Assembly (NCBI GenBank): GCA_046328995.1
Contig: JAXLVN010000001.1
Location: 542,593-606,592, forward strand
DNA: 64,000 nucleotides
From: Candidatus Kapaibacterium sp.
GTDB taxonomy: Bacteria > Bacteroidota > Ignavibacteria > Kapaibacteriales > UBA961
Direction: 5' to 3'
This document shows, one piece after another, positions 1,883 through 33,376 of this stretch. The stretch's first letter is position 1. Every line of letters starts with the position of its first letter. Under the pieces are notes generated by a model. That model did no database searches, was not told where the DNA came from, and was given only the letters and a program-made list of their open reading frames with translations. The position numbers and the translations under genes are program-made.

Positions 1883-2228
1883 AGAATATAAAGATTTTTA
1901 TAAAAATGTTTACTATCTTAATTCAGTCGGGTCAATAGATACAACTAATCGTAAATAGTTGCCTGAAAATTTACTTGTGATATTTTACACTTCTTTTCAA
2001 GTTTATGCATTCAGAGTTGTATTTAATCTCCCTTGGCACAAAAGCTGATTATAAACAGTCTAACTCCACAATCAAGCTAACATTTCATAGGTAGATATTT
2101 ACGACCACTAGTAATAACTTTCCGGTCGGAAAAGTCCAGATATGCTGCTTGAAAATCGAATATCCATACTTTTGTTTATCGGCGGACATTGCACAAATAA
2201 CTTAATTTAAATTCAATGAGTTACCATT

Positions 2229-18340: not shown

Positions 18341-18473
18341 ATATTTTCAGTAGATTCGGTTTTATAAACGGATTGTAAACACTTGCCGCTGAGACGTTTG
18401 CACGTTGATTGATAAGTATGTTTCTTAGAATATGTTTGTCGGGCAAATTTAAAAACTGCACGGACTGGAAATT
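18341..18473. repeat. Cassette-junction repeat, copy A (outlier, partly degenerate)
   Basis: Contains GTAAACACTTGCCGCTGAGACGTTTGCACGTTGA ... GTCGGGCAAATTTAAAAACTGCACGGACTGGAAAT. Same order and orientation as the 24.6-31.1 kb copies. The main hairpin is broken. Confidence 0.65.
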
Positions 18474-18506
18474 CATCTTTGCATTGCTACAGGATTCCAA
18501 TCCAAT

Positions 18507-19445: not shown

Positions 19446-19463
19446 AGTTGATTTTGTATGTAG

Positions 19464-19818
19464 TTACTTAAACATAAACGGAATCCATGTATCGTGTATG
19501 CTTTTTCTTTCTGCGCCGGCGCCGAGAGGAAGTTCGTAAAGATCATTGATGGTCTTGTCAATTTTAGTTGCTTCTTCGAGTGAAATCACTTTAGCATTAG
19601 CATCTGTATGATCACTTTGACCGCAAAGGAACTGCCAGGAGCCATCATCCTTGTCGTGAGTAACATACAAAATTTGTCTCTTTTTACGGAATACATGGTC
19701 ACAAACAAAGCACGCAGTATTTCCGGGCTCTTTAAATTTATATACTGACTTTTTTGAATTGTTGTACCCTTGGCCGAATACAGTAACCATACAGCACAAT
19801 GAAATGATGAAGAAAAAT
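19464..19818 (-). pseudogene. 3' part of a small secreted-protein gene interrupted by the IS element
   Basis: The reading frame continues upstream of the track start (TTG 19799) to the IS boundary, where it meets a TGA formed at the junction. It joins in frame with the fragment at 21117..21139. Confidence 0.75.
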
Positions 19819-21116
19819 CACTAGTGTCCACTAAAAATTTAGAGAAAATTGATTTAAGCCAAGTTCTTTGACATCATTAAAATCTGATTTATAAAATAGC
19901 TCATTAATTGGCGTTTTATCTAGTAACGAAATACTTAAAACCTGCAAAACTTCGTATGTTGATTTATTAATCATAAGTTCTTTTTCAATAATAGCAACTA
20001 AGCAATATGATATTATGGCACAATAAATTTGAATTTTAACAGCATTCTCACTATTGCCCCAAAAGGATTTAATTTTTAGATGCTGTTTAATCCATTTAAA
20101 AAATAGTTCAACTTGCCAACGATTTTTATAAAGTAGTGCAATTTGCTCAGCAGTAAGCTCCATATTATTAGATAAATATGAAAACGTTTTGTCACTTTCT
20201 TTATCATAGTAGATAACTTGGCGAATTTCATTAGGATAATCTTTTGACGCATAAAACCCTGTTAGTGTTCCTACTTGATCGCTTATTACTCCTGTGTTCT
20301 CATTGATTTTATTGAGCCGATTACATTTGAATTTAAGGTTTTTTTTAGCTCGAACAACAAAATATGCTGAGTGGTTACAAATCTTATTAAGTCTTTTAAA
20401 ATCAATATATCCACGGTCAAAAACGTAATAAGCACCATACTCATAAGGAATAACATCCATTGCATTCATATCATTAACAGAGGCTTCAGTTATATGAATA
20501 AAAGCTGGTATTTGAGTACAAATGTCATAGAGTGTATGAATCTTGATCCCGGCTTTAAATTTGCGAAATTTTGCCCACCAAAATACGCTCAGACATAAAT
20601 CAATTGTAGTAGAATCGAAAGCATAGACTTTACCTTGAATCTCAAAGTCACTATTGGCTCTCTTGTTACGTGCAATGTCAATCATATAATAAGCATATTC
20701 TTCGAAAATTTTGTTGTTTCGATTTTCGTTTGCTTTAGATAGATTACTTCTGGTACTATTCTTACCAAAACCTAAGTGATACCTTTTTCGATAATGAGCT
20801 TCAAAAGCTATAATCAAATCGCGTAAACTATCGCGACGTGTGAGTTGCCCAAACATCATAGCAAGCAAATGATTCCAGCAAGTGAAATGCTTTACATACT
20901 TATTGCCTTCATATTTCGTGACAATACTGTCGAAAACTCGTTGCGGCAAAAAGTCAACAAGTTGCGAAAAAACATATTTTCCTGTATTCATTTCTGAAAT
21001 CTAATGATTTCAGATTAAATATTAAATTCAAATCGTCACGTAAATATTTTTGACGTAAACTTCAGATTTATAAATGATTTCAAAGAACTATATTTTTGTT
21101 TTAGTGGACACTAGTG
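19819..21116 (-). mobile_element. IS4-family insertion sequence (1298 bp)
   Basis: Perfect 18-bp terminal inverted repeats: CACTAGTGTCCACTAAAA (19819-19836) and TTTTAGTGGACACTAGTG (21099-21116). A 9-bp direct target duplication AAGAAAAAT lies at 19810-19818 and 21117-21125. Confidence 0.9.
19831..20991 (-). CDS. IS4-family DDE transposase
   Basis: 386 aa. The N-terminus MNTGKYVFSQLVDFLPQRVFDSIV..FTCWNHLLAMMFGQL is typical of the DUF4372 + DDE_Tnp_1 transposases of Bacteroidota. Confidence 0.85.
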   Translation of the reverse strand: MNTGKYVFSQLVDFLPQRVFDSIVTKYEGNKYVKHFTCWNHLLAMMFGQLTRRDSLRDLIIAFEAHYRKRYHLGFGKNSTRSNLSKANENRNNKIFEEYAYYMIDIARNKRANSDFEIQGKVYAFDSTTIDLCLSVFWWAKFRKFKAGIKIHTLYDICTQIPAFIHITEASVNDMNAMDVIPYEYGAYYVFDRGYIDFKRLNKICNHSAYFVVRAKKNLKFKCNRLNKINENTGVISDQVGTLTGFYASKDYPNEIRQVIYYDKESDKTFSYLSNNMELTAEQIALLYKNRWQVELFFKWIKQHLKIKSFWGNSENAVKIQIYCAIISYCLVAIIEKELMINKSTYEVLQVLSISLLDKTPINELFYKSDFNDVKELGLNQFSLNF

Positions 21117-21139
21117 AAGAAAAATAGTAGTTTGTTCAT
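21117..21139 (-). pseudogene. 5' fragment (start codon and first signal-peptide codons) of the IS-disrupted gene
   Basis: ATG at 21139. After removing the IS and one TSD copy, the ORF reads MNKLLFFFIISLCCMVTVFGQGYNN..., 123 codons in frame (355+23-9 = 369 nt). Confidence 0.75.
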
Positions 21140-21220
21140 TGTTGAATTCCTATGAATGTTCGTTCTTAGTCGAAACTACACTTGAATTGCAAGTATTTCC
21201 TAATATACCTTCCTGACTGC

Positions 21221-22915
21221 TTACGGATTTGATTGAATAAAAGCACTTTTCCAAATCCCTTTGGCAATTCTCGCCATTTTATCTTGCCGAAGAGCGATCA
21301 CTTCAGGATCGAATTTTTCATAATCGCAATAGGTATTGCTGAGTGTATAGGTTGACGTTTTATATGCTTGTACTTTTTCATCATACCGCATTTCATTGTG
21401 CAGCTTTTTATTGATACTTGCTTCCAGTAAAGTGTAGTTTCCCAAGCGGTAGATATAGTCTTCCTGCAATGTCATCGGGAAATGCTCACTCCAAACATCG
21501 CCGGGATTTTCGGGTAAGATATGCTCAATCGTAGCAATTGCTTCTTCGGGTTGATAATCGGTGCCTGCTATCTGGTTTTCGAGTTTAATTATGATATACT
21601 TTACTAACTCTTTCTTCCTTTTTGTATTCACACTTACAGTCGAAAATGCCTGTTCGAAATTATCATCCGGCACATAGATATTTTTCAGAGCCAGTACTGC
21701 ATCTTTTGCCGTCTTGATGGAGGAATTAGCGATATCATTGGCTACTTTACTAAACACCCTCTCGGCTTCATTAGGATTCAGGTCGCTGATATTATAGCGA
21801 AAAACTATGACAGCCAATTCGCGTAACAGGATTTTGAATTCAGTCCTCGGTAAATACGTAATTGCCGAAATCATCAACGAAAAACATGTCGTTACGGTAA
21901 GAATATCTATCACTTTCAAATGCTTAGTTTCTTCTTTGTCCCAAAGTTCATCATGAGGATTGGTAAAAGCGGTATAATACGGGCTAATCTTTTCCAAAGA
22001 ATCCAAGAATTCGAATGCTTGTTGTGGAGTGTGTATTTCACGTTTGATAGCCTTAAACAACCCTTGTTGTCTTTCCTGCTTATATCTACTATTCCAATAA
22101 TGTCGTATAAAGGTAGTTAAATCATGGGTTTTGATGGTATCATTGATATTTTGCCATCTACGTTCGGCTTCTTCTAAATCGATTGCACCCAACTGATGAG
22201 TAAAATTAAACAAGTAATTTTTTAACAGGTCGGCGGTCGAAAGCTTCACTCCCCGAGCGTTGAGCGTTTCGAATACTTTAAATGCATCGAGATCATTACT
22301 GACTATTATCTGAGTAAACACAATTCCATTACCGACAATTTTTTCTAGAAAATCTGAGACTTCAGCACCAGATTTATTTTCTTTAAATCTTGCTTGTACC
22401 TGATCATAATAATAATTAAATGCTTTTTGTAATAATCGTTGAGAAGGTTTAAGTTTTGCAATCGCTGACGGTGATCGATAATTCAACAACCAACTTTTGT
22501 AGTAATCATCGTTATTTCTGTTTAATGTAATTTTAGGACTGATGGTTAGCTTCGACAGTGAATAATTGCCTATATATCTCTCGGTAAGTTTCTCTTTTCT
22601 AATAGTATTATCATTAGTATCAATGCCAACTTTCGACCAATTATCCAATAGCGCTATCACTGCAAGCGCCAATATTGACAACGTCGTTAAGCGCTGCTGC
22701 CCATCAATTACCCAAAATGATTCTTCTCTTCCATCAACCGTGGGTTGTAACACCAAATATCCGAGATAATGCGTTTTGTCGTTGGGAATTTCCTGTATGT
22801 CATTCCATAGATCCTCCCAGTCATCCCTATCCCAAGAATAGTCTCGTTGAAAGATAGGTACTTGATAGGACTTGCCATTACCGATAATTGTATTGAATGT
22901 AATAAATTGTGACAT
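21221..22915 (-). CDS. GmrSD-family DUF262/DUF1524 protein (putative type IV modification-dependent restriction nuclease)
   Basis: 564 aa. The N-terminal part has YQVPIFQRDYSWDRDDWEDLWNDI and VIDGQQRLTTLSIL (DUF262/ParB-like). The C-terminal part has IEHILPENPG...YRLGNYTLLEASINKKLHN (DUF1524 His-Me finger). Confidence 0.8.
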   Translation of the reverse strand: MSQFITFNTIIGNGKSYQVPIFQRDYSWDRDDWEDLWNDIQEIPNDKTHYLGYLVLQPTVDGREESFWVIDGQQRLTTLSILALAVIALLDNWSKVGIDTNDNTIRKEKLTERYIGNYSLSKLTISPKITLNRNNDDYYKSWLLNYRSPSAIAKLKPSQRLLQKAFNYYYDQVQARFKENKSGAEVSDFLEKIVGNGIVFTQIIVSNDLDAFKVFETLNARGVKLSTADLLKNYLFNFTHQLGAIDLEEAERRWQNINDTIKTHDLTTFIRHYWNSRYKQERQQGLFKAIKREIHTPQQAFEFLDSLEKISPYYTAFTNPHDELWDKEETKHLKVIDILTVTTCFSLMISAITYLPRTEFKILLRELAVIVFRYNISDLNPNEAERVFSKVANDIANSSIKTAKDAVLALKNIYVPDDNFEQAFSTVSVNTKRKKELVKYIIIKLENQIAGTDYQPEEAIATIEHILPENPGDVWSEHFPMTLQEDYIYRLGNYTLLEASINKKLHNEMRYDEKVQAYKTSTYTLSNTYCDYEKFDPEVIALRQDKMARIAKGIWKSAFIQSNP

Positions 22916-23072
22916 GTTTTATCGTTGTCCTTTCGGTTGTATAGTAAAGTAATACTACTTTATACAATTTTATTTTATTGTCCCGCTACTTTTGAGCATT
23001 CGATTCACAGGCGAGTATTTCCGTGCTATTGCTGAGGCAGTACAGAACAGGAATGCCTTGATATATACCATC

Positions 23073-23519
23073 TTATCCAATAGCCCGACCAACAACATGC
23101 CACCCCGCAAACGGTTTTACCGTTCCACAAGTAGGTCCATTGTCTTTTCCGGTGCCATGCACTCTTGCTACTAGCATGAGTGAACTAGTAGTGGATAATG
23201 CCCGGATAGTATCCCAATCAATCCCGATTAAAGGAATTTTCATTCTGCGACTCCAGTGGGTGTGTTGACCGGCGCTAGCACCGATATCAATATACACAAA
23301 ACGTTGATTCGTCGGACCTTGAACGAAGGCACCCAGAAAGTTGGGAAGTCCATCTTTTGCAGGCTTTACCGTAATTGTGAACTCAAACTCGAGATTTTTA
23401 TCACCCGAACGCTGAATTTGAATGGTATCGTAGGTGTTCCCACTTCCCTTCTGTAATCCAAAGTCGATGCCGGCTGGTGCATGTTCTATTATAATTTTTA
23501 GGGGTATTTCTTGCGTCAT
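23073..23519 (-). CDS. Hypothetical protein (DUF5990-like)
   Basis: 148 aa from the ATG at 23519 (MTQEIPLKIIIEHAP..). The pattern GIDFGLQKG...FVQGP..QRFVYIDIG...W.RRMKIPL recalls DUF5990. From memory only. Confidence 0.35.
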   Translation of the reverse strand: MTQEIPLKIIIEHAPAGIDFGLQKGSGNTYDTIQIQRSGDKNLEFEFTITVKPAKDGLPNFLGAFVQGPTNQRFVYIDIGASAGQHTHWSRRMKIPLIGIDWDTIRALSTTSSLMLVARVHGTGKDNGPTCGTVKPFAGWHVVGRAIG

Positions 23520-23635
23520 GATGGTTTGGGAATTAATAAGAAATGCTTGTAATCCTATAGCCAATAGATCTACAGCGTGGAGCTTTATCAGATACTTAGT
23601 TCAAAAGTTGCATGTGTTGCTTTTTCAAGTGTATT

Positions 23636-24562
23636 TTATTTAGTCCATTTTTGATTTTCTCGTAATTCAAACAACAACTGATATATTCTGTCAAGCCCAA
23701 ATGTTCCAATTAAGCCATAATCGCTTATTGATTTTACCTTACCATTGTCATATGTAATTGTTAATATTGAAGATTGGTCGTCAGTCCAATTCACTGCATA
23801 CCTATCTTTAAGAGTTTCGAAATCTATATAATTCAACAAGTTTGTTAATTCTTCAAATTTGTCCTGAGCTATCACTGTTTGAAATTTTCCTTTCCATTCC
23901 TGTTTATCAATATCGTTATACTCTACCGCATCCCATTTTGCAGTTTTGTCTGAATTGATTGATAATTTGAATATTGGGCAAGTTCCATAACAACCGGTGG
24001 TTGCATATTCAATTTTCTCAATCTTATGATTCGATGGTGTTTGATTTTCTTCAATGAAGTCGCCAAATTTATAGATCAGAGTTATCTTTATTAGTTTTCT
24101 TGGCACATTCCATTTCCCTGATTCTGGCTCACCTTCGTAATAATAGGTAATAGCATGCTTTTCAACAATTGGGAACGTACAATCCTGAAAACTTCTTCTC
24201 GTGATGCGCTTGATTTCATATTTCCCCTGTTTGTCTAATATGCACAGAACAGAATGGTCATACCATTTACCAACGACTAATATATCAGTCAATCCATTAT
24301 TGTCAAAATCCGCTTTTGTCCAAGGTAGAACTTTTAGACTGTCACTCAACTTTTGACATTTTTTATCCCTAAATTGCAGTTTGTCTTTGAGTTTGAACTC
24401 TTTGTAACTACTATCAATTGTTAACAGTAAGTCTGTAATTTGTTTTGCGTTCTGAATACTGTCAATGTAATTAGTTTTACTTGAAACACTATTTTCAGTT
24501 TGTGCATAACTTGAATGAATTAGTGTCATGAAGATTATTAATTGAAAAATAGCTTTGATCAT
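23636..24562 (-). CDS. Secreted protein with a DUF6438-like C-terminal region
   Basis: 308 aa from the ATG at 24562 (MIKAIFQLIIFMTLIHSSYAQ signal peptide). Has an FDNNGLTDILVVG FG-GAP-like segment and a GCYGTCPIFKLSINSDKTAKW motif. Confidence 0.5.
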   Translation of the reverse strand: MIKAIFQLIIFMTLIHSSYAQTENSVSSKTNYIDSIQNAKQITDLLLTIDSSYKEFKLKDKLQFRDKKCQKLSDSLKVLPWTKADFDNNGLTDILVVGKWYDHSVLCILDKQGKYEIKRITRRSFQDCTFPIVEKHAITYYYEGEPESGKWNVPRKLIKITLIYKFGDFIEENQTPSNHKIEKIEYATTGCYGTCPIFKLSINSDKTAKWDAVEYNDIDKQEWKGKFQTVIAQDKFEELTNLLNYIDFETLKDRYAVNWTDDQSSILTITYDNGKVKSISDYGLIGTFGLDRIYQLLFELRENQKWTK

Positions 24563-24646
24563 ATTCTTATTCAATTCAATTGGTGGATAAAATTTTGACT
24601 TTTGTGGTTTGGTAACCGTTGTTCCGAAAGTCACCGACAAAACTAA

Positions 24647-24775
24647 ATATTTTTCCGTCTTATCATTTTTATACAGACTGTAAATACTTGCAGCTGAAAC
24701 GGTTGCACGTTGAAAAGCAGTACTTATTATAGGTCAGTGTTGACGGGTAGTTCTATGAACTGCCCGGATTCTAAA
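24647..24775. repeat. Cassette-junction repeat, copy B
   Basis: CTGTAAATACTTGCAGCTGAAACGGTTGCACGTTGAAAAG...ATAGGTCAGTGTTGACGGGTAGTTCTATGAACTGCCCGGATTCTAAAT. Confidence 0.8.
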
Positions 24776-24954
24776 TTTAACAAAGCGATAGCTTGTTCTT
24801 TAGTCACGGTTGGAAAGTCTTCGAGAAAGGAGTCCAAAGAAATGCCCGCCTCAAGATGATCAAATTAGGATTCTACAGGCACACGTGTTCCTTTAAAAAC
24901 AGTTTGCCCGCCAAGTATGTCATTGTCGATTGTGATTAGTTCTTTAATATCCAT
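24727..24954 (-). pseudogene. DUF433-family (antitoxin-like) gene with an in-frame TAA
   Basis: Below the track size cut-off. Reads MDIKELITIDNDILGGQTVFKGTRVPVES*FDHLEAGISLDSFLEDFPTVTKEQAIALLNLESGQFIELPVNTDL*. The internal TAA is at 24865-24867. The last ~16 codons lie inside repeat copy B. Confidence 0.7.
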
Positions 24955-25004
24955 GGCTTAAATTTACGAAATAATATTCAATAGTAATGTGCTCTAAAAT
25001 TTGC

Positions 25005-25125
25005 ACATGTTCCGTTTTATAACTGATTGCAATCGCATAACACGTAAACGTATTCAGGTTGAAAGAGCAGCATGTTTATAGGTTATTGTTGCCGGGCAGT
25101 ACAAAAACTGCCCGGACAGGATTTA
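25005..25125. repeat. Cassette-junction repeat, copy C
   Basis: Divergent left half. Has a perfect 9-bp hairpin: CCGGGCAGT (25092-25100), loop ACAAAA, ACTGCCCGG (25107-25115). Confidence 0.75.
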
Positions 25126-25150
25126 AAACCGTTCTCCTTCCAAAACCATA

Positions 25151-25609
25151 TTAATCTTCACAAATTTCTTTTAACGTATCAAGTGCCTTCGGATAGGTCT
25201 CGTTCATAAAATCCACAAAATCGTCGGTGGTATCCAAGTCAACAGTCACCAAAGTACTTCCATCATGTTCTTCAAACGTATAATTTTCAAATCCGTTTGC
25301 CCATTTTTCCACTGCAGGTCCTTCCGTGATTTCTTCATTTCCCTGTACCATTCCGTAATGGCGAATTGAAATAAATCGGTTGGGAATATTCTCAGCAATC
25401 TCTGAAACCATTCCACCTTTTTCTCCCTTTTCATCGGTGCCGACGAAGAGCATTTTGCTGCCTTTATCCCAACTGCCCTCATAAGTCGATGTAGGATTGA
25501 AGGCCGCAGTCCATCGCTTATACGTTGATTTGGAGGTAATACCCAACATTACATCATAGACGTTGCTTGCAGGCGCACTGATTTGAATCGTGTATTGTAT
25601 TTTTTTCAT
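25151..25609 (-). CDS. SRPBCC/AHSA1-family protein
   Basis: 152 aa. MKKIQYTIQISAPASNVYDVMLG... and the overall pattern are typical of Activator-of-Hsp90-ATPase-like SRPBCC proteins. Confidence 0.75.
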   Translation of the reverse strand: MKKIQYTIQISAPASNVYDVMLGITSKSTYKRWTAAFNPTSTYEGSWDKGSKMLFVGTDEKGEKGGMVSEIAENIPNRFISIRHYGMVQGNEEITEGPAVEKWANGFENYTFEEHDGSTLVTVDLDTTDDFVDFMNETYPKALDTLKEICED

Positions 25610-25645
25610 GGTTATAACCTTTATGTTTAGTACACAGTTAAACAG

Positions 25646-26008
25646 TTACTTTCGTAGAATTTTTTCCATTTTCCTACCCTTCGCCAATTCATCCACTAAT
25701 TTGTCGAGATATCGAACGTGCTTTGTTAGTTGATTTTCAATGTCTTCTATTCGATAACCACAAATCATTCCGGTAATCATCGCTGCGTTTGAGTGTAATG
25801 ATGCCTCCTCAAAAAATACTTCAAACGTTGCCTTCCTATCAATCAGCTCCTGAATTCGCTTGTCGTCATAACCTGTCAACCACTCAATGACTTGATGTAA
25901 TTCTTCAATCGTTCTGCCTTTCTTCTCCACTTTTGTCACATAATGTGGATAGACAGACGCAAACGTCATTGTTGCCATGCGTCGGTTATGTTCAGGCGTA
26001 ACGTTCAT
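25646..26008 (-). CDS. DUF2200 family protein
   Basis: 120 aa. MTFASVYPHYVTKVEKKGRTIEELHQVIEWLTGYDD is the DUF2200 signature. Confidence 0.8.
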   Translation of the reverse strand: MNVTPEHNRRMATMTFASVYPHYVTKVEKKGRTIEELHQVIEWLTGYDDKRIQELIDRKATFEVFFEEASLHSNAAMITGMICGYRIEDIENQLTKHVRYLDKLVDELAKGRKMEKILRK

Positions 26009-26017
26009 AGTTTAGTT

Positions 26018-26252
26018 TAGGGTTTCCGCATCAAATTTTTAAGGGGAAATAATCCATTTCTTTAGCCCTAGAAGGGCGAAATAGTAATAGAACACGTACA
26101 TCCTATTATTCAAGAAGCTCCATCGGATCGATACAGGTGGTGGATTGGTCGTATTTATTTCGCTCCTATGGAGCTTTATTTCTACGAATTGTCCATTTTC
26201 TATTACGATTTCGCTCCTATGGAGCTATTAGAATTGTGATGCGGAAACCCTA
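26018..26252. mobile_element. 235-bp MITE with perfect 16-bp terminal inverted repeats and a 10-bp target-site duplication
   Basis: TIRs are TAGGGTTTCCGCATCA (26018-26033) and TGATGCGGAAACCCTA (26237-26252). Flanking direct repeats TAGTTTAGTT lie at 26008-26017 and 26253-26262. The interior is self-complementary, with two copies of TTTCGCTCCTATGGAGCT. Confidence 0.85.
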
Positions 26253-26256
26253 TAGT

Positions 26257-26664
26257 TTAGTTGGATTCTGTATATTTCTTAAAATTATCCAGAATCGCCT
26301 GCCAACCTTGTCTTTGAAGATCGACAGAGTGTACCGTTTCAGGGTCGAAGGTTACTGTTACCTGCGTCTTTCCTTCATGTTCGCTAAACTCTACGGATGC
26401 GGCACGTTCGCCAAATACATACCTAAAGCTTTGTCCTTCATTGATTTCAGAATACGTAGCGTCAAAGTCAAAGCCAAAACTCCCGTCTTTAGCTTCCATT
26501 CTCGCGACATATCTTCCACCCACTTTTAAATCGTTTGAGGCAGTCGGACAGCACCAATCATCACTTGCAAAATTCCATTTTGTGATATGCTCAGGCAATG
26601 TATAATAGTCCCACACTTTTTGTTTGTCCGCTGTGATTGTTGCTTGTACTGTTATCCTATCCAT
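26257..26664 (-). CDS. SRPBCC/AHSA1-family protein
   Basis: 135 aa. ITVQATITADKQKVWDYYTLPEHITKWNFASDDWCCP...GGRYVARMEAKDGSFGFDF is typical of the YndB/AHSA1-like SRPBCC family. Confidence 0.8.
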   Translation of the reverse strand: MDRITVQATITADKQKVWDYYTLPEHITKWNFASDDWCCPTASNDLKVGGRYVARMEAKDGSFGFDFDATYSEINEGQSFRYVFGERAASVEFSEHEGKTQVTVTFDPETVHSVDLQRQGWQAILDNFKKYTESN

Positions 26665-26698
26665 TGTAGTTGTGATTTGTTGATAAATGATAGTTTTT

Positions 26699-26842
26699 AG
26701 TATTTCCTTGTCATTTTACGTCTGCTTAGTTATTCAAACCGACCGTAAATACTTACTGATGAAACGGTTGTATGTTGAAAGTAAAGTACGATTCAATGGT
26801 ATATGTTGACGGGTTGTATTAAGTCTGCCAGAATCGAATTTA
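26699..26842. repeat. Cassette-junction repeat, copy D
   Basis: CCGTAAATACTTACTGATGAAACGGTTGTATGTTGAAAG...TATGTTGACGGGTTGTATTAAGTCTGCC. The distal hairpin is degenerate. The repeat abuts the stop codon of 26843..27628. Confidence 0.75.
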
Positions 26843-27628
26843 TCAAGTATCTGTCGGTGTCTCGTCCCAATTGTTATTACGCGCGAATCCACATAACCAA
26901 TTTAAAGCAAAATGTCTTTCAATTATTATTGAAGTTGCTTCCAGAAAATCATCTGCGCCTAAATCACGAAATGGTATTCCTTTCAAAACAAAATCCTGAT
27001 CCATTATTTCTTTAATATCACCATTTTCATACGCTGATTTTGCTGCCATTTTAACTATATCATCCAAGCTGTTTATTCCAGCTTTTTTCATATTCTCATC
27101 CGGTTCAAACTTATAATTATTTTGAATCAGCCTGCGAGTGTTTACTCTCCAATGCCATGCCTCAATAATGTCTCTCATTTTACTGATCTCATTATAAGGT
27201 CTCAGTTTCAAGTCACTGAAGAATAGACCAATCCTCTTTATTGGTATCTTTTGCAATCTTTCAGGATTTGCTTGTTCGTTTAAATCCGGAAAGTGGTTTT
27301 CTATGTTTAAAGCCCACATAAGAACTACAGCAGCTTCCATTCTCCAGGTAGCATTCATTTGTGATGTACCATCAATATTTGAACCATAGGTGGAAAGAAA
27401 GTCTTTCTCAGATTGTGTTGTGTATTTCCATAATCCGAAATCCTTTATTGATGATACTGTTTCCTCCATATTTTTTTGAAGTACGTTCTCATAATCTTCT
27501 TTATCGGCTACGGTCCAGTTTACAGTGTTTTGTTTCATCACATCAACCGGAACGTTTCGATAAGAATGTGAGATTACATACTTAAGAACCATTAATCTTC
27601 TATAAACATCTTTTGAGCTTGGTTTCAT
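26843..27628 (-). CDS. Hypothetical protein (possibly DUF4272-like)
   Basis: 261 aa from the ATG at 27628 (MKPSSKDVYRRLM). ATWRMEAAVVLMWAL resembles the DUF4272 core as I recall it. Confidence 0.4.
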   Translation of the reverse strand: MKPSSKDVYRRLMVLKYVISHSYRNVPVDVMKQNTVNWTVADKEDYENVLQKNMEETVSSIKDFGLWKYTTQSEKDFLSTYGSNIDGTSQMNATWRMEAAVVLMWALNIENHFPDLNEQANPERLQKIPIKRIGLFFSDLKLRPYNEISKMRDIIEAWHWRVNTRRLIQNNYKFEPDENMKKAGINSLDDIVKMAAKSAYENGDIKEIMDQDFVLKGIPFRDLGADDFLEATSIIIERHFALNWLCGFARNNNWDETPTDT

Positions 27629-27639
27629 TAATGTATCTC

Positions 27640-27768
27640 CTCTCGGACAGATTTTCAAACTTGCCGTAAATACTTACATTGGAACGGCTGTATTTTGTAA
27701 GTGCTCAATGGTTCATGGGTTTGTGTTGACGGGCAGTTCTAAAAACTATATGGACCGGAAATTCTACG
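27640..27768. repeat. Cassette-junction repeat, copy E
   Basis: CCGTAAATACTTACATTGGAACGGCTGTATTTTG...TTGTGTTGACGGGCAGTTCTAAAAACTATATGGACCGGAAATTC. Confidence 0.75.
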
Positions 27769-27774
27769 TCCGTT

Positions 27775-27890
27775 AGGTTTTTAAACAAACCGTAAGTACT
27801 TACTTCTAATACGTTTGCTCGTTGAATGTGCTGTACAGATGACAGTTAAGTGATACTATACATTTTTAAGAACAGTCCGGTCTGGGGTTC
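27775..27890. repeat. Cassette-junction repeat, copy F (degenerate, directly follows copy E)
   Basis: CCGTAAGTACTTACTTCTAATACGTTTGCTCGTTGAATG...TTTTTAAGAACAGTCCGGTCTGG. No ORF lies between E and F. Confidence 0.6.
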
Positions 27891-27895
27891 ACTTT

Positions 27896-28225
27896 TTATA
27901 ATTTTCTTGCTTGGTATTTATAGCGTTCAACAAACTCTCTGGCATCTCTGAGGTTTTCAGGGTATGCAACAAGATTTTGAAATGAAGTTATTCCGTTGTT
28001 AGTTTCTACAGTCTCGTAAATGTGCTGGAAGTAAAAACCATTATCAATCAGTAATTTAACAGTTTCCCACTTTTTGTCATCCGATTTTTTAGGCGGTCGA
28101 AACCTGTGAGATAAAAGCAGCATCGGTTTGCCACATGTTGGACAGTTGGCTTCTCTTCTGTTATTCAAGTCAGTACCTTGACTAAATGATATTCTGCAGT
28201 CTAAACAAACTACTTTATGTCCCAT
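27896..28225 (-). CDS. Hypothetical zinc-ribbon protein
   Basis: 109 aa with CLDC...CPTC (a CxxC-x18-CxxC pattern). Confidence 0.5.
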   Translation of the reverse strand: MGHKVVCLDCRISFSQGTDLNNRREANCPTCGKPMLLLSHRFRPPKKSDDKKWETVKLLIDNGFYFQHIYETVETNNGITSFQNLVAYPENLRDAREFVERYKYQARKL

Positions 28226-28239
28226 TGTCGTAATGTTGT

Positions 28240-28370
28240 AATATTTTGCCCTGTCAGTTTTTTAAAATGGCCGTAAATACTTACTGCTGAAACAGTTGCA
28301 AGTTGAAAGAACATTGAACTTCATAGGTTAGTGTTGACGGGCAGTTCTAAGAACTGCACGGACTGTAAGA
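28240..28370. repeat. Cassette-junction repeat, copy G (near-consensus)
   Basis: CCGTAAATACTTACTGCTGAAACAGTTGCAAGTTGAAAGAAC...ATAGGTTAGTGTTGACGGGCAGTTCTAAGAACTGCACGGACTGTAAGA. Its right end abuts the stop codon at 28371. Confidence 0.85.
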
Positions 28371-29327
28371 TTATTTAGATAAGCAGTGTATTCTTTCTGT
28401 CACTTTATATACTTTACCGGTGTCAGCGGGTTGAGAGTAATCAAATTTGTAATACTTTTCAACATAGCAGCTACAGTTATTGTTCTTCAAAGTCACGCTA
28501 ATAATTTTAGATCCTCCAAAATTTGATTGTCTGATTGTTGTTACAGCATATCCATTTGCTTTACACTTTTCAACGAGTTCAATTCTTTGGTTTGGGTCGT
28601 TTATATAAGCTTGAGAATCATTATAAATATCAGTAAATTCGAGTGGTTTTTTATTACAAAGCTTCAAATTCTTAAAATCGAAACTTTGGAAACTAGTTTC
28701 AACAAACTCATCACTTTTAATCGTGCCATATTGGTAATTGTAATTTTTGTCCTTCCCTTCAGATCCATTAATTACTTTAAACGATTCAATATCAACCCCA
28801 TATACGATGTCATTGTTATTCACTATTTGTTTTTTAGTCTTTCCCCAATCTTCGTCGATAGGAATAAACTCGTTGATATCTTCAAGATAAACAGTGTCTC
28901 GCCCATGAATTAATAAATTGCCTGCTTTTGCCCATGGATATGTAAGTAATTCGATTTTATGAGGATTAATTCCTTTAATGACACAATCATTCAAACTGTT
29001 GTAAAATCCAAAAAAATACGCACTGTTTTTATCGGCAAAAATATAATTCCCTATGAATTTAAAAGTCGAGGGGTCGATATTTTTCATTGGTATTCCATCC
29101 ATGAATATATGTTTTTTATCTTTTCCAAAAGCAAAATTACAATCACAATTGAATTCTACTTTTTGAAAAGATTTTGCATCTGCTTCTTCAATGAGACGTT
29201 TTCCTTGCCCACTAGCCTCGTTCCAATATTCATAATAAACCTTCTGATTTTCTATTTTGTAACCTCTTCTGCAACCTGCCAACAAACAAATTGATAAAAC
29301 TATAAAGAATACTTGCCTAAATGTCAT
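28371..29327 (-). CDS. DKNYY-family lipoprotein
   Basis: 318 aa with lipobox LLAGC. Has repeated DKN-type motifs (GKDKKHIFMDG, DKNSAYFFG, GKDKNYNYQYG). Confidence 0.55.
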   Translation of the reverse strand: MTFRQVFFIVLSICLLAGCRRGYKIENQKVYYEYWNEASGQGKRLIEEADAKSFQKVEFNCDCNFAFGKDKKHIFMDGIPMKNIDPSTFKFIGNYIFADKNSAYFFGFYNSLNDCVIKGINPHKIELLTYPWAKAGNLLIHGRDTVYLEDINEFIPIDEDWGKTKKQIVNNNDIVYGVDIESFKVINGSEGKDKNYNYQYGTIKSDEFVETSFQSFDFKNLKLCNKKPLEFTDIYNDSQAYINDPNQRIELVEKCKANGYAVTTIRQSNFGGSKIISVTLKNNNCSCYVEKYYKFDYSQPADTGKVYKVTERIHCLSK

Positions 29328-29344
29328 TTTAGATTACCTTTTAT

Positions 29345-29400
29345 AATTACCGCCGAAATCTGAACAATTGCAACCGTTGCATTATACCCTAACACAGTCA
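29345..29400. repeat. Possible decayed remnant of the cassette-junction repeat (copy J)
   Basis: ACCGCCGAAATCTGAACAATTGCAACCGTTGCATT loosely matches the ACCGCTGAAACGGTTGC core. No distal hairpin. Confidence 0.3.
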
Positions 29401-29464
29401 TTTATATCTACCTAATTCCCTTCCGGCTTTATCGAATCTATCGGAATCTTATACAACTTTGGTT

Positions 29465-29857
29465 CTACGTGCGCATTACTCTTTGTCGAAGTTTCTCTTG
29501 TAACCGCCCACCTTCCCTGCTTAAATACTCCTCTCCTTTTCTCGTAAGTTTGATTGAATAGACTTCGTTGCATGGATACCAATTTGCAGGATTGTTTAAC
29601 ACCTGCTCAATATCCTGTAACTCAACTTTCTCAATCGGCTCGGAAGCATACGACTCGGCAAACTTTTCTATAATGATCAATTCATCTGTGAGCAAATCAA
29701 CAAGCAGTTCGTGAGCTATTCTGTATTTGTCTTCAATTGTCAAAGGAAAATGCCCAAGCTCCCACGTTAACATATAAATTCCCGGATTTCCATCGAAAGC
29801 ATTTTCAAGGAAAACAAGTTTTTCAATATCAAGGTCAATGTCACGATAGTTTGCCAT
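29465..29857 (-). CDS. Hypothetical protein
   Basis: 130-aa ORF with no recognised domain. Confidence 0.5.
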   Translation of the reverse strand: MANYRDIDLDIEKLVFLENAFDGNPGIYMLTWELGHFPLTIEDKYRIAHELLVDLLTDELIIIEKFAESYASEPIEKVELQDIEQVLNNPANWYPCNEVYSIKLTRKGEEYLSREGGRLQEKLRQRVMRT

Positions 29858-29900
29858 TGTTTTTATGAGTATTCTTTGTTAGAAGTACATTTTTGTTCAA

Positions 29901-30031
29901 TTTTTCTGTCCGGTCAGTTTTTTAAACTGACTGTAAATACTTACCGCTGAAACGGTTGCGTGTTGAACGAGCAGTATGTTTTACAGGTTTATGTTGAGGG
30001 GCAGTTCTAAGAACTGCTCGGACTGGAAAAT
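29901..30031. repeat. Cassette-junction repeat, copy H (near-consensus, strongest terminal inverted repeats)
   Basis: The left end TTTTTCTGTCCGGTCAGTTTTTTAAAC is the inverted match of the right end GAACTGCTCGGACTGGAAAAT. The core is as in copy G. Confidence 0.85.
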
Positions 30032-30064
30032 CCCATGTTAGTGGCTGGCTTTTTTTCTTCGTAT

Positions 30065-30538
30065 TTATTCATCTTCTAGTTCTCCGTCATTATAACTTAC
30101 TCTCGTCAGCCCTCGTCCATTCTTAAAAACAAGTTGTAGTCCGTGTTCTTCTTCCCATTTACAACCACATTCAACTAAAACAAAAACTTCACCTTTTTCA
30201 TTCTGGTATAGAATTATATCTGTCGGATAAACATAATCCCAAATTTCATTGTCGGATTTTAATTCAAGTCTTGGCGTATAGTCAAAAATTAAATTCTGTT
30301 TATAGTTCTCTATGATTTGAGAAGAATGGTTATGTCGTTCAGAAATTGAAAGTTGCATAAAATTATCAAGTGCAATGTCTGCAAGTGTAAAATAGCTTTC
30401 ATTTTCAGCTTCTGTAAAAACAATATTCAGTCGTTTATTTTGAAAATATGGTATTTCAATTAATTCGCTATTCCACCATTCTTCAAAGTTTTCGTCTTGT
30501 ATTAGTTGCCCTGCAATTTTTGAAATCATATTTACCAT
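30065..30538 (-). CDS. Hypothetical protein (DUF6985-like C-terminus)
   Basis: 157 aa. ECGCKWEEEHGLQLVFKNGRGLTRV resembles the DUF6985 C-terminal motif (from memory). Its start overlaps the upstream stop by 7 nt. Confidence 0.4.
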   Translation of the reverse strand: MVNMISKIAGQLIQDENFEEWWNSELIEIPYFQNKRLNIVFTEAENESYFTLADIALDNFMQLSISERHNHSSQIIENYKQNLIFDYTPRLELKSDNEIWDYVYPTDIILYQNEKGEVFVLVECGCKWEEEHGLQLVFKNGRGLTRVSYNDGELEDE

Positions 30539-30996
30539 TCAATTTGTTCTGTAAATGCTTTGTCTTTATAATTCTTAAAGTCACAAATCTTAAAGTGTGA
30601 TTTGTCCAAAATATTAAGTTCCCATATTGAAGAATTGTCTGCCCAAGGATCAATTAAAATTTGAACACTATTTAGATTTATTTGTCTAATTCTACAAGCC
30701 CAATACAATTCGTCAACTTCTAGTTCAGTTGTTTCTTTTGTAGTCCAAATTATTACAGTAGAACCACCAATTACACACCATTTATTGTCTTGGTCAATAA
30801 GCCCACAGCTTGGGTCGCCATACATACTACCTAATTCATATCTCTCATTTGTTTCTTTGTCGAATAAGTATGTTTCTTCAAAAATATGACCAAGAACATA
30901 CTTATTAGTTTCGTTTAAAATTTTAAAATTGTCGTCCACTGTTTTTGTTATGTAGAGTGTCTCTGAAGCTTGCGACCAAAATCTGAATGAACGCAA
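30532..30996 (-). CDS. Hypothetical protein (TTG start or 5'-truncated)
   Basis: 154-aa ORF. The only in-frame start is TTG at 30996, with a TAA three codons upstream. Translationally coupled to 30065..30538. Confidence 0.4.
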   Translation of the reverse strand: MRSFRFWSQASETLYITKTVDDNFKILNETNKYVLGHIFEETYLFDKETNERYELGSMYGDPSCGLIDQDNKWCVIGGSTVIIWTTKETTELEVDELYWACRIRQINLNSVQILIDPWADNSSIWELNILDKSHFKICDFKNYKDKAFTEQIEW

Positions 30997-31097
30997 CTTT
31001 TGAGTTTATATCCTAAATATTTTCGTTCGCATCTACCTTATTCCCATTCGGTTAGTCGTTTCTTACCTGCCAAAAACCATCAAGCAATCTTTTCATT

Positions 31098-31140
31098 GGC
31101 AAGTACTTACGGGCTGTTGTAGCAACAGCCCGGACGAAAA
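31098..31140. repeat. Cassette-junction repeat, short form (copy I)
   Basis: GGCAAGTACTTAC is joined directly to the hairpin GGGCTGTTG-TAG-CAACAGCCC (31111-31131), followed by GGACGAAAA. Lies 50 nt downstream of the ABC transporter stop. Confidence 0.6.
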
Positions 31141-31189
31141 CAAACACCACCAGCCGTTCATTGAACAAAGCCGAAATGGCCGAAATTAC

Positions 31190-33376
31190 TTAATTCCCCA
31201 ACTCCAACTGATTCTTCACCAGATGATAATACATTCCCCGTGCTGCGGTGAGTTCGTCGTGGGTGCCGCGCTCGACGATTGTTCCTCGGTCGAGAACGAG
31301 GATTTGGTCGGCGTTTTTGACAGTGCTGAGGCGGTGGGCGATGACGAGAACCGTCTTGCCGGCGCAGAATTTGCTGAGCTTTTCCATGATGGCGCGTTCG
31401 TTGTTGGCGTCTAAGGCGCTTGTGGCTTCGTCGAAGAAGAGATAATCGGGGTTTTTATAGACTGCACGTGCGATGAGTATCCGTTGCTTTTGTCCCTGAC
31501 TTAGTCCATGCCCGTCCTGCCCTATTTTCGTCGTGTAACCGAGCGGAAGAGATTCGATAAATTCTTTGATATTCGCTACTTCCACGGCATACATGAGGCG
31601 TTCGCGGTTGATGTGTTCGTCTCCAGGCGCCACATTTCGGGCAATCGTATCCGAGAAAATAAACCCGTCCTGCATCACCACCCCGCAATGCTCCCGCCAT
31701 ACTTTGGTGCTGAGATTGTCGATAGATGTATTGCCGATGCGAATATCACCGGTAGTGGGCTTGTAGAATTTCAGGAGTAACTTCAGGAGTGTTGTTTTCC
31801 CGCTTCCACTTACGCCGACGATTGCTGTCGTCTTCCCTGCCGGAATCGTGCAGTCAATTCCCGACAAAGTCGGCTCGGCATGAGGATTATCATAATGGAA
31901 ATTCACGCTGCTCATACGGATCGTTTTGTCATTCGGCATCTCCTCGAGCAGCTCCGCTTCGTCATTTTCCTCATCGTCTTTCGTGTGAATCTCTTTGATC
32001 CGCTCAAGACTCAGGCGCGCATCCTGCGCTGTCGAGAAGAATCCAAGTAATTGATCTATAGGACTATTAAGCGCGCCGATGATATAGGACACCGACATCA
32101 TCATACCAAGCGTCATGTTACCGTGAATTACTTCACTTGCCGCCAGAAAGGTAATGATGATATTTTTCAACTCATTGATAAATAAGAGTCCCGCTTGCTG
32201 ATATTGCCCCAAGCTCAAGCTTTTCACCGTAATCTGGAATAAATTCGCCTGCAAACGTTCCCATTCCCAGCGTTTTTCTGTTTCGATGGTGTTGAGCTTG
32301 ATTTCCTGCATGCCGTTGATGAGTTGGATGAGCGAACTCTGATTCTCACTCATTTTTGCGAACCGTCTATAGTCGAGTTCGGCTCGCTTGCGCATAAATA
32401 CAAACACCCAGCCAACAGCCGCACAGCTTCCGATACCGAAAATCAGCGCCATTTTCATACTATAGACAGCCATTAATATTCCAAAAACTACGATATTAAT
32501 GATGGAGAAAATGACATTTAATCCGTTGCTGGTCAGGAATCCTTCGACGCGCTTATGGTCGCCGATTCTCTGCAAAATATCGCCGATCATTTTTGTATCA
32601 AAATACGACATCGGGAGCTTCATGAGCTTCATCAGGAAGTCGGAAACGATGGAGATATTTATTCGTGCGCCGATGTGGAGTAATATCCAACTGCGTATGA
32701 ATTCAACACTTGTGCGACTCACAAACAGCACAAGCTGCGCTACGAGCATGAGCGTGACAAAGTCAGTATTCTGCGTGTTTACTCCATAATCAACCAGCGA
32801 TTGGGTAAGAAGCGGAAAGAGTAAACCGATCAGACTCCCCACCACTGCGCCCAACACAAGCTGCACGATATGCCGTTTATATCCTGTGAGATAGGCAAAT
32901 AAAAACCCGAATCCTTTCCCTGCCTGATTACGTTCGTCCTTCATGGCTTTGAAGTCAGGAGTCGGCTCGAGCATGAGCACTATTCCCTGTTCTTTCCCGC
33001 TACTCGCCCATTCATCGAGGAAATCTTTCTTCGTATAGGTGATGATACCATGCGCGGGATCGCCAATCGTGAGCACATTACCCGCTACTTTATACAGCAC
33101 GACAAAGTGATTCTGCCGCCAATGAAGAATACATGGTAAGGGAATTTCCTGTAATTGGTCAAAGTGAATACGCCCGGCTCTTGTTTTAAAGCCGATCGAC
33201 TCAGCAGCATCGCTGAGCCCGCGTAAAGGAACGCCTTCGCGGGTGATATAGCTCCGGTCGCGGAGGGTTTGGAGTCGGTAGGTCTTGCCGTAATACTTGG
33301 CAATCATTCGCACACAGGTCGGACCACAATCTTTCGAATCATATTGTTTATAAAAGGGATAACGTAACCTAACCAT
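31190..33376 (-). CDS. Peptidase C39 domain-containing ABC transporter (bacteriocin/peptide processing-export type)
   Basis: 728 aa. Features: an N-terminal C39 domain (YKQYDSKDCGPTCVRMIAKYYG, NHFVVLY), six TM helices, Walker A GVSGSGKTT, signature LSQGQKQR and Walker B LFFDEATSALD. Confidence 0.9.
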   Translation of the reverse strand: MVRLRYPFYKQYDSKDCGPTCVRMIAKYYGKTYRLQTLRDRSYITREGVPLRGLSDAAESIGFKTRAGRIHFDQLQEIPLPCILHWRQNHFVVLYKVAGNVLTIGDPAHGIITYTKKDFLDEWASSGKEQGIVLMLEPTPDFKAMKDERNQAGKGFGFLFAYLTGYKRHIVQLVLGAVVGSLIGLLFPLLTQSLVDYGVNTQNTDFVTLMLVAQLVLFVSRTSVEFIRSWILLHIGARINISIVSDFLMKLMKLPMSYFDTKMIGDILQRIGDHKRVEGFLTSNGLNVIFSIINIVVFGILMAVYSMKMALIFGIGSCAAVGWVFVFMRKRAELDYRRFAKMSENQSSLIQLINGMQEIKLNTIETEKRWEWERLQANLFQITVKSLSLGQYQQAGLLFINELKNIIITFLAASEVIHGNMTLGMMMSVSYIIGALNSPIDQLLGFFSTAQDARLSLERIKEIHTKDDEENDEAELLEEMPNDKTIRMSSVNFHYDNPHAEPTLSGIDCTIPAGKTTAIVGVSGSGKTTLLKLLLKFYKPTTGDIRIGNTSIDNLSTKVWREHCGVVMQDGFIFSDTIARNVAPGDEHINRERLMYAVEVANIKEFIESLPLGYTTKIGQDGHGLSQGQKQRILIARAVYKNPDYLFFDEATSALDANNERAIMEKLSKFCAGKTVLVIAHRLSTVKNADQILVLDRGTIVERGTHDELTAARGMYYHLVKNQLELGN

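Follow-up and report, generated by a model that had tools for sequence, protein, structure and literature searches.

What keeps a string of small, unrelated genes in one orientation, with copies of the same structured repeat set between them? The question is raised by a stretch of 64,000 nucleotides (nt) of Candidatus Kapaibacterium sp. (contig JAXLVN010000001.1, positions 542,593 to 606,592; hereafter "the window", with positions counted from its first letter), in which short genes follow one another behind the gene of a C39-peptidase ATP-binding cassette (ABC) exporter. A first-pass annotation, made from the letters alone, had described an integron-like cassette array, had also compared it with the recombinase-associated immunity-gene arrays of Bacteroidales, and had left room for a distinct cassette system. 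On balance, and with restrained confidence, we regard the locus as a chromosomal integron-type cassette array that has no integrase in cis, in the manner of a CALIN (cluster of attC sites lacking integron integrase). Its site would be a lineage-specific, non-canonical analogue of attC, and the array, anchored behind a core gene, would be fed at a leader sequence by a recombinase encoded elsewhere.

The repeat comes in full units of about 135 nt. Seven of these (B, C, D, E, F, G and H) lie at 24.6-30.0 kb of the window and an eighth (A) at 18.35 kb. Units B-H were recovered by repeat finding, by motif search and by a profile hidden Markov model (HMM) trained on them (E 1e-28 to 1e-40), within a few nucleotides of where the first-pass annotation had placed them, and the same HMM matched unit A, which stood outside the training set, at E 1e-18. 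A 25-nt core, GTTGACGGGCAGTTCTAAGAACTGC, occurs 4 times where chance predicts 0.00 occurrences, and the motif CCGTAAATACTTAC 24 times where 5.3 are expected. As had been claimed, the copies share a single orientation: every full unit is on the minus strand, the coding strand of all genes in the array region. Two smaller elements had been listed with them. The short copy I is real and turned out to be the first arm of a longer, conserved leader of about 165 nt; element J is also present, but it is no decayed standard unit, since the HMM does not match it and it is a copy of the leader's right part.

The units are confined to a low-GC island that extends from about 8 to 31.1 kb (GC 0.32-0.41, against 0.44-0.49 in the flanks) and forms a one-directional gene string immediately 3' of the exporter gene. 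All eight full units are within it, and an HMM scan found none in the remaining ~40 kb of the window. The unit is not found in 78 other ABC-exporter loci, and a self-BLAST repeat screen of these made no comparable array evident, so that the ABC gene is a mere anchor, and in this lineage only. Nor was there any match in an Rfam scan of 22-34 kb at E <= 1, in two pattern scans of viral contigs, or in a scan of genome contigs with CAACNGTTTCANNNGYAAGTAYTTAC, a pattern that was too strict.

The anatomy of the unit is well defined. Units measure 132-135 nt and are nearly free of indels; nineteen of them, drawn from six sequences (the window, a sister metagenome-assembled genome and four metagenome contigs), align over 136 columns with a mean column identity of 76%. 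On the coding strand the consensus runs ATTTCCAGTCC, the palindrome P1 (GGGCAGTTC TTA GAACTGCCC), GTCAACACAAACCTA, TGAAACG, TACTGCTCTTTCAACnTGCAAC, CGTTTCA, GCG, GTAAGTATTTAC, the palindrome P2 (GGTCAGTTT AAA AAACTGACC), GGACG and AAAAT. Identity between units is 75-91% over columns 1-101 and falls to 20-46% over columns 102-136, and because of this step the unit is treated here as two modules. The left module (~100 nt, conserved) sits at the 3' end of the upstream cassette and comprises, in order, the 9-3-9 palindrome P1 right after the stop codon, CCGTCAACAC, the inner repeat TGAAACG...CGTTTCA and the near-palindromic box GTAAGTATTTAC. The right module (~35 nt, variable) is made of P2 and GGACG-AAAAT, and usually goes with the downstream cassette. 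Units start 0-32 nt past stop codons, in keeping with the earlier remark that the repeat begins at or near the stop.

What kind of symmetry do these modules form? The inverted ends that the first-pass annotation had noticed in copy H are confirmed and are a property of the whole family: the first ~37 nt of a unit return in inverted form as its last ~37 nt. Across the dyad, pairing reaches 56-61% of cells throughout the family and drops to 31-42% once the partners are slid. The inner repeat is conserved as well, at 75.5% paired and 23-41% after sliding. In the local palindromes P1 and P2, double changes are in modest excess (1/500). Single-strand folding is better than that of shuffled sequences only for H (on both strands; z = -4.4 for the single-stranded DNA fold), for the plus strand of G and for three of four left modules folded alone. 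A consistent whole-unit hairpin was accordingly rejected. The units do not behave as intrinsic terminators either: six terminator-like sites were found, none of them at a unit, and the sequence that follows P1, GTCAACAC, holds no T-run.

Comparison with relatives turns the repeat into a boundary marker. The sister metagenome-assembled genome (MAG), Ignavibacteria bacterium Lyne_18-Q3-R50-59_BAT3C.229 (L002), was found via its ABC exporter (92% amino-acid identity); in GTDB, Ignavibacteria are placed in the Bacteroidota. A degenerate pattern scan of JGI metagenomes added five more fragments of the locus (L082, L084, L085, L086 and L088), all five true matches to the unit pattern being this same locus; L083 and L087 were rejected as chance pattern matches. 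The core flanks of the window and L002 are syntenic at 82-84% nucleotide identity, and downstream of the exporter L002 has three unit copies with different genes. The window reads ABC - leader - (135aa + DUF6985) - H - (130aa) - J - (DKNYY) - G - (109aa) - F, E - (DUF4272) - D - (AHSA1, DUF2200, SRPBCC) - C - (DUF433 pseudogene) - B - (DUF6438, DUF5990, GmrSD, IS4, 312aa) - A - (DUF4240). L002 reads ABC - leader - (178aa) - unit - (aldo/keto reductase) - (AHSA1, DUF2200, SRPBCC) - unit - (DUF433) ... (DUF5990) ... (312aa) - unit - (109aa), with the left module precisely absent between two of its cassettes. The cassettes are shuffled in L082, which reads (reductase) - unit - (171aa) - half unit - (AHSA1 trio) - half unit - (272aa) - unit - (DUF5990) - unit - (109aa), and in L085, unit - (152aa) - unit - (reductase) - unit - (TetR + membrane protein) - unit. 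Shorter pieces are L088, ABC - leader - (pentapeptide protein) - unit, and L084, ABC - leader - (168aa) - unit.

Whole cassettes thus differ in presence or order among the window and L002, L082, L084, L085, L086 and L088, with the repeat common to all. Synteny breaks at unit columns 1-5, 27-33, ~101 or 119-140, or no more than about 20 nt from unit edges. The comparison that the first-pass annotation had proposed, namely presence or absence of single cassettes with breaks in the repeats, is therefore positive in the sister MAG and in the five metagenome contigs. The three genes of the AHSA1 cassette move together in L002 and L082 (87-92% nucleotide identity), DUF5990 is a unit-flanked cassette in L082, and unit C differs from its L002 ortholog along its whole length. 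Island DNA of the window and L002 is 88-95% identical in BLAST pieces, and the DUF433 open reading frame (ORF) about 99% identical (counted from the alignment) to an intact 79-amino-acid (aa) L002 gene (16036-16275). These values exceed those of the core flanks, which points to recent horizontal exchange of island DNA.

Where would new cassettes enter? Past the ABC stop codon, the window, L002, L084 and L088 share a conserved stretch of ~165 nt that extends as far as ...CAGA(T or C)(G or T), and directly past this leader stand four different first cassettes, joined at the same nucleotide and all starting with TT (TTGGTCGC, TTTTGTGC, TTAGCTGC and TTAAACGG). In two genomes the junction reads CAGATG/TT or TAGACG/TT (the slash in such motifs marks the boundary). 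The four genomes therefore differ cassette by cassette at the end that corresponds to the attI-proximal end of an integron, where new cassettes are added. The first part of the leader, the former short I (GTCCGGGCTGTTGCTACAACAGCCCGTAAGTACTTGCCAATGAAAAG), is a P1 arm with the box that follows it and matches the unit HMM. Element J, by sequence reading, repeats the final ~75 nt of the leader and ends in TTCAGATT; it holds a CAGATTT motif at 29356-29362, next to which comes the canonical cassette start TCGGCGGTAATTATAAAA. These junctions mark the leader as an insertion hot spot of the array.

The closest link to integrons lies in the cassettes themselves. Homologs of DUF6985 (76-87% amino-acid identity) are found in other Bacteroidota, in Arachidicoccus ginsenosidimutans (L089) and in the metagenome contigs L090, L101, L114/L116 and L117. 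Their arrays are co-directional, and the intergenic repeats are textbook attC sites, with invariant R'' AAC and R' CGTT positions. The two-gene cassette of the 135-aa ORF and DUF6985 also stands in the classical attC arrays L090 and L101, and L089 and L114 have the DUF6985 cassette with the same boundaries, the 135-aa ORF not being called there. Where the 5' junction was read, the classical cassette starts ...CCG/TTGGTGGCAAGCTT (L090, L101, L114) or G/TTGATGGCAAGCTT (L089), and the attC that follows the DUF6985 stop codon begins GCCAGCCACCAAC, or GCCTGCCACCAAC in L089. In the window the cassette starts TTGGTCGCAAGCTT directly past the leader, and after its stop codon it retains GCCAGCCACTAACATGGG, a remnant of the classical R'' box at 30033-30050, which forms the 3' end of cassette 1 and is followed by unit H. 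A regular-expression search of the window found no other piece of a classical attC. DKNYY homologs (68-70% amino-acid identity) likewise occur in the classical attC arrays L105-L107, where they start AACG/TTGGTGGCAATTATAAAA; the window DKNYY cassette starts TCGGCGGTAATTATAAAA directly past J. These shared cassettes and canonical starts indicate that both window cassettes, 135aa + DUF6985 and DKNYY, originate in the classical integron pool. Judged by their sequences, both join a leader-type element exactly where an integron integrase would cut: cassette 1 and DKNYY start at the classical G/TT nucleotide, and the first cassettes of three relatives start with TT. The integron likeness claimed at first is thus closer than had been supposed.

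Two observations on these homologous loci stand apart. In L090 an element with inverted ends (GCTGTTGCACAAC...GTTGTGCAAC), part of a ~300-nt repeat, lies within classical attC sites (9270-9568 and 10501-10804; a third begins at about 11910), inserted right past R''-AACAYGGG, the same position at which unit H adjoins the R'' remnant in the window; it may be an attC-targeting element. In Pedobacter (L111), a 315-aa gene divergent from DKNYY was considered as an integrase and rejected, since its product is no tyrosine recombinase; the DKNYY gene there does not form a cassette.

Within the array the boundary is less sharp. For the internal cassettes of unit type, the start falls somewhere within the T-run of GTATTTACGG. 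Unit A and unit c of L002, whose upstream cassette is common and downstream cassette is not, are alike throughout the left module and begin to differ at P2; where the downstream cassette is common (L002 unit c and 82_4; 84_1, 88_1 and 85_1), P2 and the right end are common too. From these unit pairs, the conservation step between columns 101 and 102 and the junctions at the leader and J, we infer that exchange takes place mainly where the left module ends on its right side, within this same T-run.

The favoured account can then be put as follows. An integron-integrase-type tyrosine recombinase, encoded elsewhere in the genome, would exchange strands at that edge, in a position equivalent to ...CAGATK/TT in the leader. 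Circular cassettes would enter mainly at the leader and leave by excision between units, and homologous exchange between conserved left modules would probably add shuffling. Given the short 5' leaders of the cassettes, their transcription would probably begin in the ABC operon; a scan for sigma-70-type promoters found none systematically at units, Bacteroidota promoter types being outside its coverage.

A number of results weigh against this account. First, the unit is not a classical attC. The boxes RYYYAAC and GTTRRRY are absent from it, as the first-pass annotation had said, and it has no GTT triplet at the presumed crossover. A surrogate attC covariance model, built from 13 attC sites of L089, L090, L101, L105 and L106 (it is not IntegronFinder's model), finds nothing in the units of the window, L002 and L082-L088 (best E > 8); the same model recovers more than 25 attC sites in its source loci, untrained ones included, and also picks up AT-rich sites (23-52 bits) in L114, L116 and L117. 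By eye, faint echoes of a classical site can be read in CCGTCAACA against ACCGCCAACA, in AACCGTT(TC)AGCGGT against AACCGTTAGCGGT, and in TTACGGTCAGTTTAAAA...GGAC against the classical cassette start TTGGCGGTCATTGTAACGGAC, but this resemblance is a lead only, since nhmmer finds no significant homology between the unit and classical attC. Second, no recombinase was found. Among window ORFs of at least 120 aa, a Pfam scan shows no tyrosine or serine recombinase (no PF00589), which agrees with the earlier statement that the window holds no integrase, and tblastn of the window with IntI1 and XerD gave no match. None was noted in the array loci annotated or scanned, most of which are short or limited to +-10 kb. 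Third, the geometry of exchange is untidy. Breaks within units vary (two pairs break in the centre, at columns 55-65, one at P1 and some at the right end), and a single fixed crossover nucleotide was accordingly rejected for the mosaic pairs. In two cases the unit is wholly different despite a common downstream cassette or both flanking cassettes in common. The homology of the leader's right end with that of the unit is based on a weak alignment. The two arms of a unit show no covariation, and a unit's own arms pair no better than arms taken from separate units (233/500 shuffles); a cassette's 5' right module is only marginally more complementary to its own 3' left arm than expected at random (16.3 of 33 positions, against 15.2; p = 0.055, n = 10). 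Finally, the cassette order is the same in contigs of six further samples (seven in all) that carry an identical DUF6985 protein, taken as a sign of the same species: L001 and L095-L100 have the gene order of the window, L001 being 100% identical to it. This identical order means that cassette turnover is not fast, and these contigs are uninformative as to cassette variation. Site-specific exchange with added homologous recombination fits the whole best; homologous exchange alone is also compatible.

Could the repeats then have nothing to do with a dedicated recombinase? That is the alternative that survives best, although we consider it doubtful. It holds that palindromes of the REPIN/BIME kind (doublets of repetitive extragenic palindromic, REP, sequences; bacterial interspersed mosaic elements) or of the MITE kind (miniature inverted-repeat transposable elements), or else structural or regulatory 3' hairpins, accumulated in an old, decaying integron-derived island, and that cassette differences arose by homologous recombination or gene conversion between repeats 75-90% identical after DNA uptake. 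The missing recombinase is just what it expects, as are exchange points that vary inside the unit, a cassette order stable within the species and the precise loss of a left module between two L002 cassettes. In build, too, the unit is like a REP doublet: two inverted arms of ~37 nt, each with its own palindrome, with compensatory change in the local hairpins P1 and P2 and none in the long-range pairing; REPINs and BIMEs similarly consist of two inverted palindromic arms of ~35 nt with a spacer, at gene 3' ends. Mobility is, moreover, clear for other small elements with terminal inverted repeats (TIRs) in such arrays, namely the one at window 26010-26256 and the one inserted into attC sites of L090. 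What speaks against such palindromes is their distribution. Dispersed elements would not be held to one locus and one orientation, with none in the ~40 kb of core flanks or in the 10-kb upstream flank of L002, only the leader-like element Z outside the island in 64 kb, 78 other loci empty and all metagenome matches coming from the same locus. They have no REP-associated tyrosine transposase (RAYT) or other transposase partner, and they mark the boundaries of exchangeable cassettes. Nor does homology-driven exchange predict a leader junction that is nucleotide-identical in four genomes and abuts canonical TT starts, and as to hairpins, P1 without a T-run is not a standard terminator.

A second alternative sees in the locus a decayed classical integron array, inactive today, whose units are rapidly diverged attC sites and whose differences between genomes are old deletions. 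In its favour are the classical R'' remnant past DUF6985 and several signs of decay: the DUF433 pseudogene, an insertion sequence (IS), a degraded GmrSD in L002 and unit-free blocks. We nevertheless hold this view to be improbable, as a fixed unit length and strong symmetry are maintained in at least the six sequences of the alignment, island DNA is closer between species than core DNA, and deletion alone could not produce four different first cassettes without recombination at the leader junction itself.

The other resemblance raised at the outset concerns arrays of recombinase-associated acquired interbacterial defense 1 (rAID-1), in which a XerD-like tyrosine recombinase (>44% identity to BF9343_RS08045) is followed by co-directional orphan immunity genes with a GC of <=41% and repeated intergenic motifs, and whose mechanism of growth is unknown (Ross et al., 2019; bioRxiv 10.1101/471110). 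The resemblance holds for the layout, with low-GC, co-directional short genes and repeated intergenic sequences, and fails for the 5' recombinase and for the immunity-like content, the content here being integron-like; links to integron cassettes, moreover, are not reported for rAID. A rAID-1 relative whose XerD-like recombinase became separated from the array is very improbable: it would suit the intergenic repeats, the co-directional genes of mostly 109-318 aa (at least two of them low in GC), an array GC of 32-40% (24-31 kb) and a closest MAG, L002, recorded as an Ignavibacteria bacterium and hence presumably of the same phylum, but the 5' place is taken by the ABC exporter in all four genomes that reach that end and no tyrosine recombinase stands there, none of the cassettes matches Imm or SUKH by Pfam (they include a reductase, a TetR pair and a restriction enzyme), two are classical integron cassettes with G/TT boundaries, and close rAID recombinase homologs are reported as restricted to Bacteroidales.

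We return, then, to the integron-type array without integrase in cis, and to the systems closest to it. The closest known one is the CALIN, a cluster of attC sites lacking integron integrase (Cury et al., 2016; PMC4889954), or the sedentary chromosomal integron array. Like these, the locus has co-oriented cassettes, mostly with one ORF each, an imperfect palindrome of ~100-130 nt 3' of each cassette, sites that resemble one another throughout the array, cassette gain and loss that fall, between relatives, mainly near the proximal end, and miscellaneous or unknown content (across the arrays a reductase, a TetR pair, a pentapeptide protein, GmrSD, an antitoxin-like protein and unknowns). It also shares two cassettes with classical arrays, G/TT boundaries included, and has no integrase within 10 kb, as in most CALINs (PMC4889954). 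It differs in a site that fails the surrogate model, which counts no attC here, in the extra outer palindromes P1 and P2, in a part of ~35 nt instead of 6 nt to the right of the presumed crossover, and in its head, which is a housekeeping ABC-exporter gene and not an intI-attI platform. A second comparison is offered by secondary-site (attG) insertion by IntI, which has a very broad landscape of genomic sites with a GWT-like target (Loot et al.; bioRxiv 10.1101/2022.09.11.507474). There, too, cassettes lie off an integron platform, at a short GWT-like target 3' of a resident gene whose promoter can express them; here, however, one target is reused in four genomes and is itself a member of the repeat family, and attG sites are not described as seeding multi-cassette arrays (bioRxiv 10.1101/2022.09.11.507474). 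The array is set apart from known systems by its site family, its extended symmetric arms, the long right module borne by the cassette and the one non-attI target reused in four genomes.

What would follow? Tentatively, and with clearly less assurance than for the array itself, a second class of integron-type site may exist: about 100 nt long, with flanking dyad-symmetric arms, invisible to standard attC models, served by an integrase of altered specificity or by another recombinase family encoded away from the array, and able to take up canonical cassettes while replacing their attC. Integron surveys look for matches to a single attC covariance model and for an intI gene next to the cassettes; the present locus, for all its integron-like behaviour, would probably escape both criteria. 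If such a class is real, integron-like platforms in Bacteroidota, Ignavibacteria and metagenomes generally are under-counted by current tools, and the 3' end of a housekeeping gene could act as an array's attI. If the unit works as a recombination site, it would widen the known range of sequence and structure of cassette-associated sites and imply cassette traffic between canonical and non-canonical arrays, of which the hybrid 3' end of cassette 1 (classical R'', then the new unit) would be an instance. It would also offer a tractable case for the origin or replacement of attC, the hybrid end bearing directly on replacement. The array may, besides, illuminate how recombinase-associated arrays grow in gut Bacteroidales.

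Table 1. Features of the array and its surroundings, in window coordinates.
Feature	Position	Strand	Basis or remark
C39-peptidase ABC exporter gene	31190..33376	-	Pfam Peptidase_C39, ABC_membrane and ABC_tran; conserved core gene anchoring the array
Leader, ~165 nt, long left-module variant; putative attI-like insertion point	30980..31144	-	Palindrome I (GGGCTGTTGCTACAACAGCCC); ends in GTTGCGTTCATTCAGATT
Cassette 1: 135-aa ORF (30532-30939) and DUF6985 (30065-30538)	30033..30979	-	Start TTGGTCGCAAGCTT
Unit H, best-preserved repeat	29900..30032	-	HMM E 3e-40
Cassette 2: 130-aa ORF, no Pfam family	29465..29857	-	
J, second copy of the leader's right part (ends in GCAACGGTTGCAATTGTTCAGATT); 3' site of cassette 2	29356..29430	-	Sequence reading against the leader
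Cassette 3: DKNYY gene (28371-29327), classical-type 5' end	28371..29355	-	Pfam DKNYY
Unit G, starting at the DKNYY stop codon	28239..28370	-	Repeat finding, HMM
Cassette 4: 109-aa ORF, CxxC pairs zinc-ribbon-like by eye, no Pfam family	27896..28225	-	
Units F (27763-27891) and E (27632-27764), back to back, no ORF between	27632..27891	-	Equals an empty cassette
Cassette 6: ORF, DUF4272	26843..27625	-	Pfam
Unit D	26711..26842	-	Repeat finding, HMM
Cassette 7: AHSA1/SRPBCC (26257-26664), DUF2200 (25646-26008), SRPBCC (25151-25609)	25151..26664	-	Pfam
Unit C, degenerate	24995..25126	-	HMM
Cassette 8: DUF433 pseudogene	24776..24954	-	In-frame TAA; 3' end replaced by unit B
Unit B	24648..24778	-	Repeat finding, HMM
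Unit-free block: DUF6438, DUF5990, GmrSD, IS4-family transposase (19831-20991), 312-aa ORF	18507..24640	-	Pfam
Unit A, eighth full copy	18343..18474	-	Left part orthologous to L002 unit c, right part not
Last cassette: DUF4240	17662..18297	-	Different 109-aa ORF at the same position in L002 and L082
Z, solitary leader-type element	1935..2135	-	HMM matches on both strands; comparison with the leader by eye; weak

The gene families that the first-pass annotation had read from the translations (DUF6985, DKNYY, DUF4272, two of AHSA1/SRPBCC type and DUF2200) are borne out by Pfam, and three array ORFs match no Pfam family. The DUF433 ORF is readable as such, but its frame is interrupted by an in-frame TAA where the intact L002 gene has TTA. 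By Pfam, window ORFs of at least 120 aa include the housekeeping genes dnaE, pyrG, icd, hflX, aspS and speA, proteins with type IX secretion system tails and a single IS4 transposase.

Element Z lies 29 kb away from the array, whose leader it resembles (GGTCGTAAATATCTACCTATGAAATGTTAGCTTGATTG...TTTCAGGCAACTATTTACG), and is followed by a 299-aa ORF (983-1882, minus strand) of 29% GC without a Pfam family; together the two may form a second, one-cassette site.

Several mobile or repeated elements share the window with the array. Inside the island an IS4-family element (~19754-21335), with a transposase of the DDE_Tnp_1 and DUF4372 families, is not present in the otherwise collinear L002. Within cassette 7, between AHSA1 and DUF2200, lies an element of ~245 nt (26010-26256) with perfect 14-bp TIRs (GGGTTTCCGCATCA...TGATGCGGAAACCC), which recurs in relatives at other positions and orientations (L002 9711-9878 and, inverted, 16860-17023; L086 849-1014) and is not at the same spot in L082; these occurrences suggest a mobile MITE. 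An element of ~145 nt represents a second family of small mobile repeats; it is intergenic in the window core (38317-38459, 35695-35787) and is found in L086 (1996-2141) beside a unit upstream of DUF433. Between the ABC exporter and DUF4296/aspS the window has the gene of a 669-aa tetratricopeptide-repeat (TPR) protein (33625-35634, plus strand); L002 lacks it at the syntenic position and has a copy of the ~245-nt MITE-like element instead.

Further from the units, a 37-nt tandem repeat (CTTTTGCTACTGAGGTTTTTCGTTCGGGCGTTTATTT), whose period is not a multiple of 3, forms two intergenic arrays at 9417-9817 and 11554-12142, of 10.8 and 15.9 copies with 91-93% matches. Each stands just downstream of one copy of a ~0.8-kb segment (9949-10763 and 12269-13083; 99-100% identical, 2.32 kb apart). 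Finally, a 201-nt unit repeated 1.9 times (95% identity) occupies 2838-3228, upstream of a small ORF, and each of its copies holds GTTGTGGAGTTCCGGTAGGAACGTAGCAAATTG.

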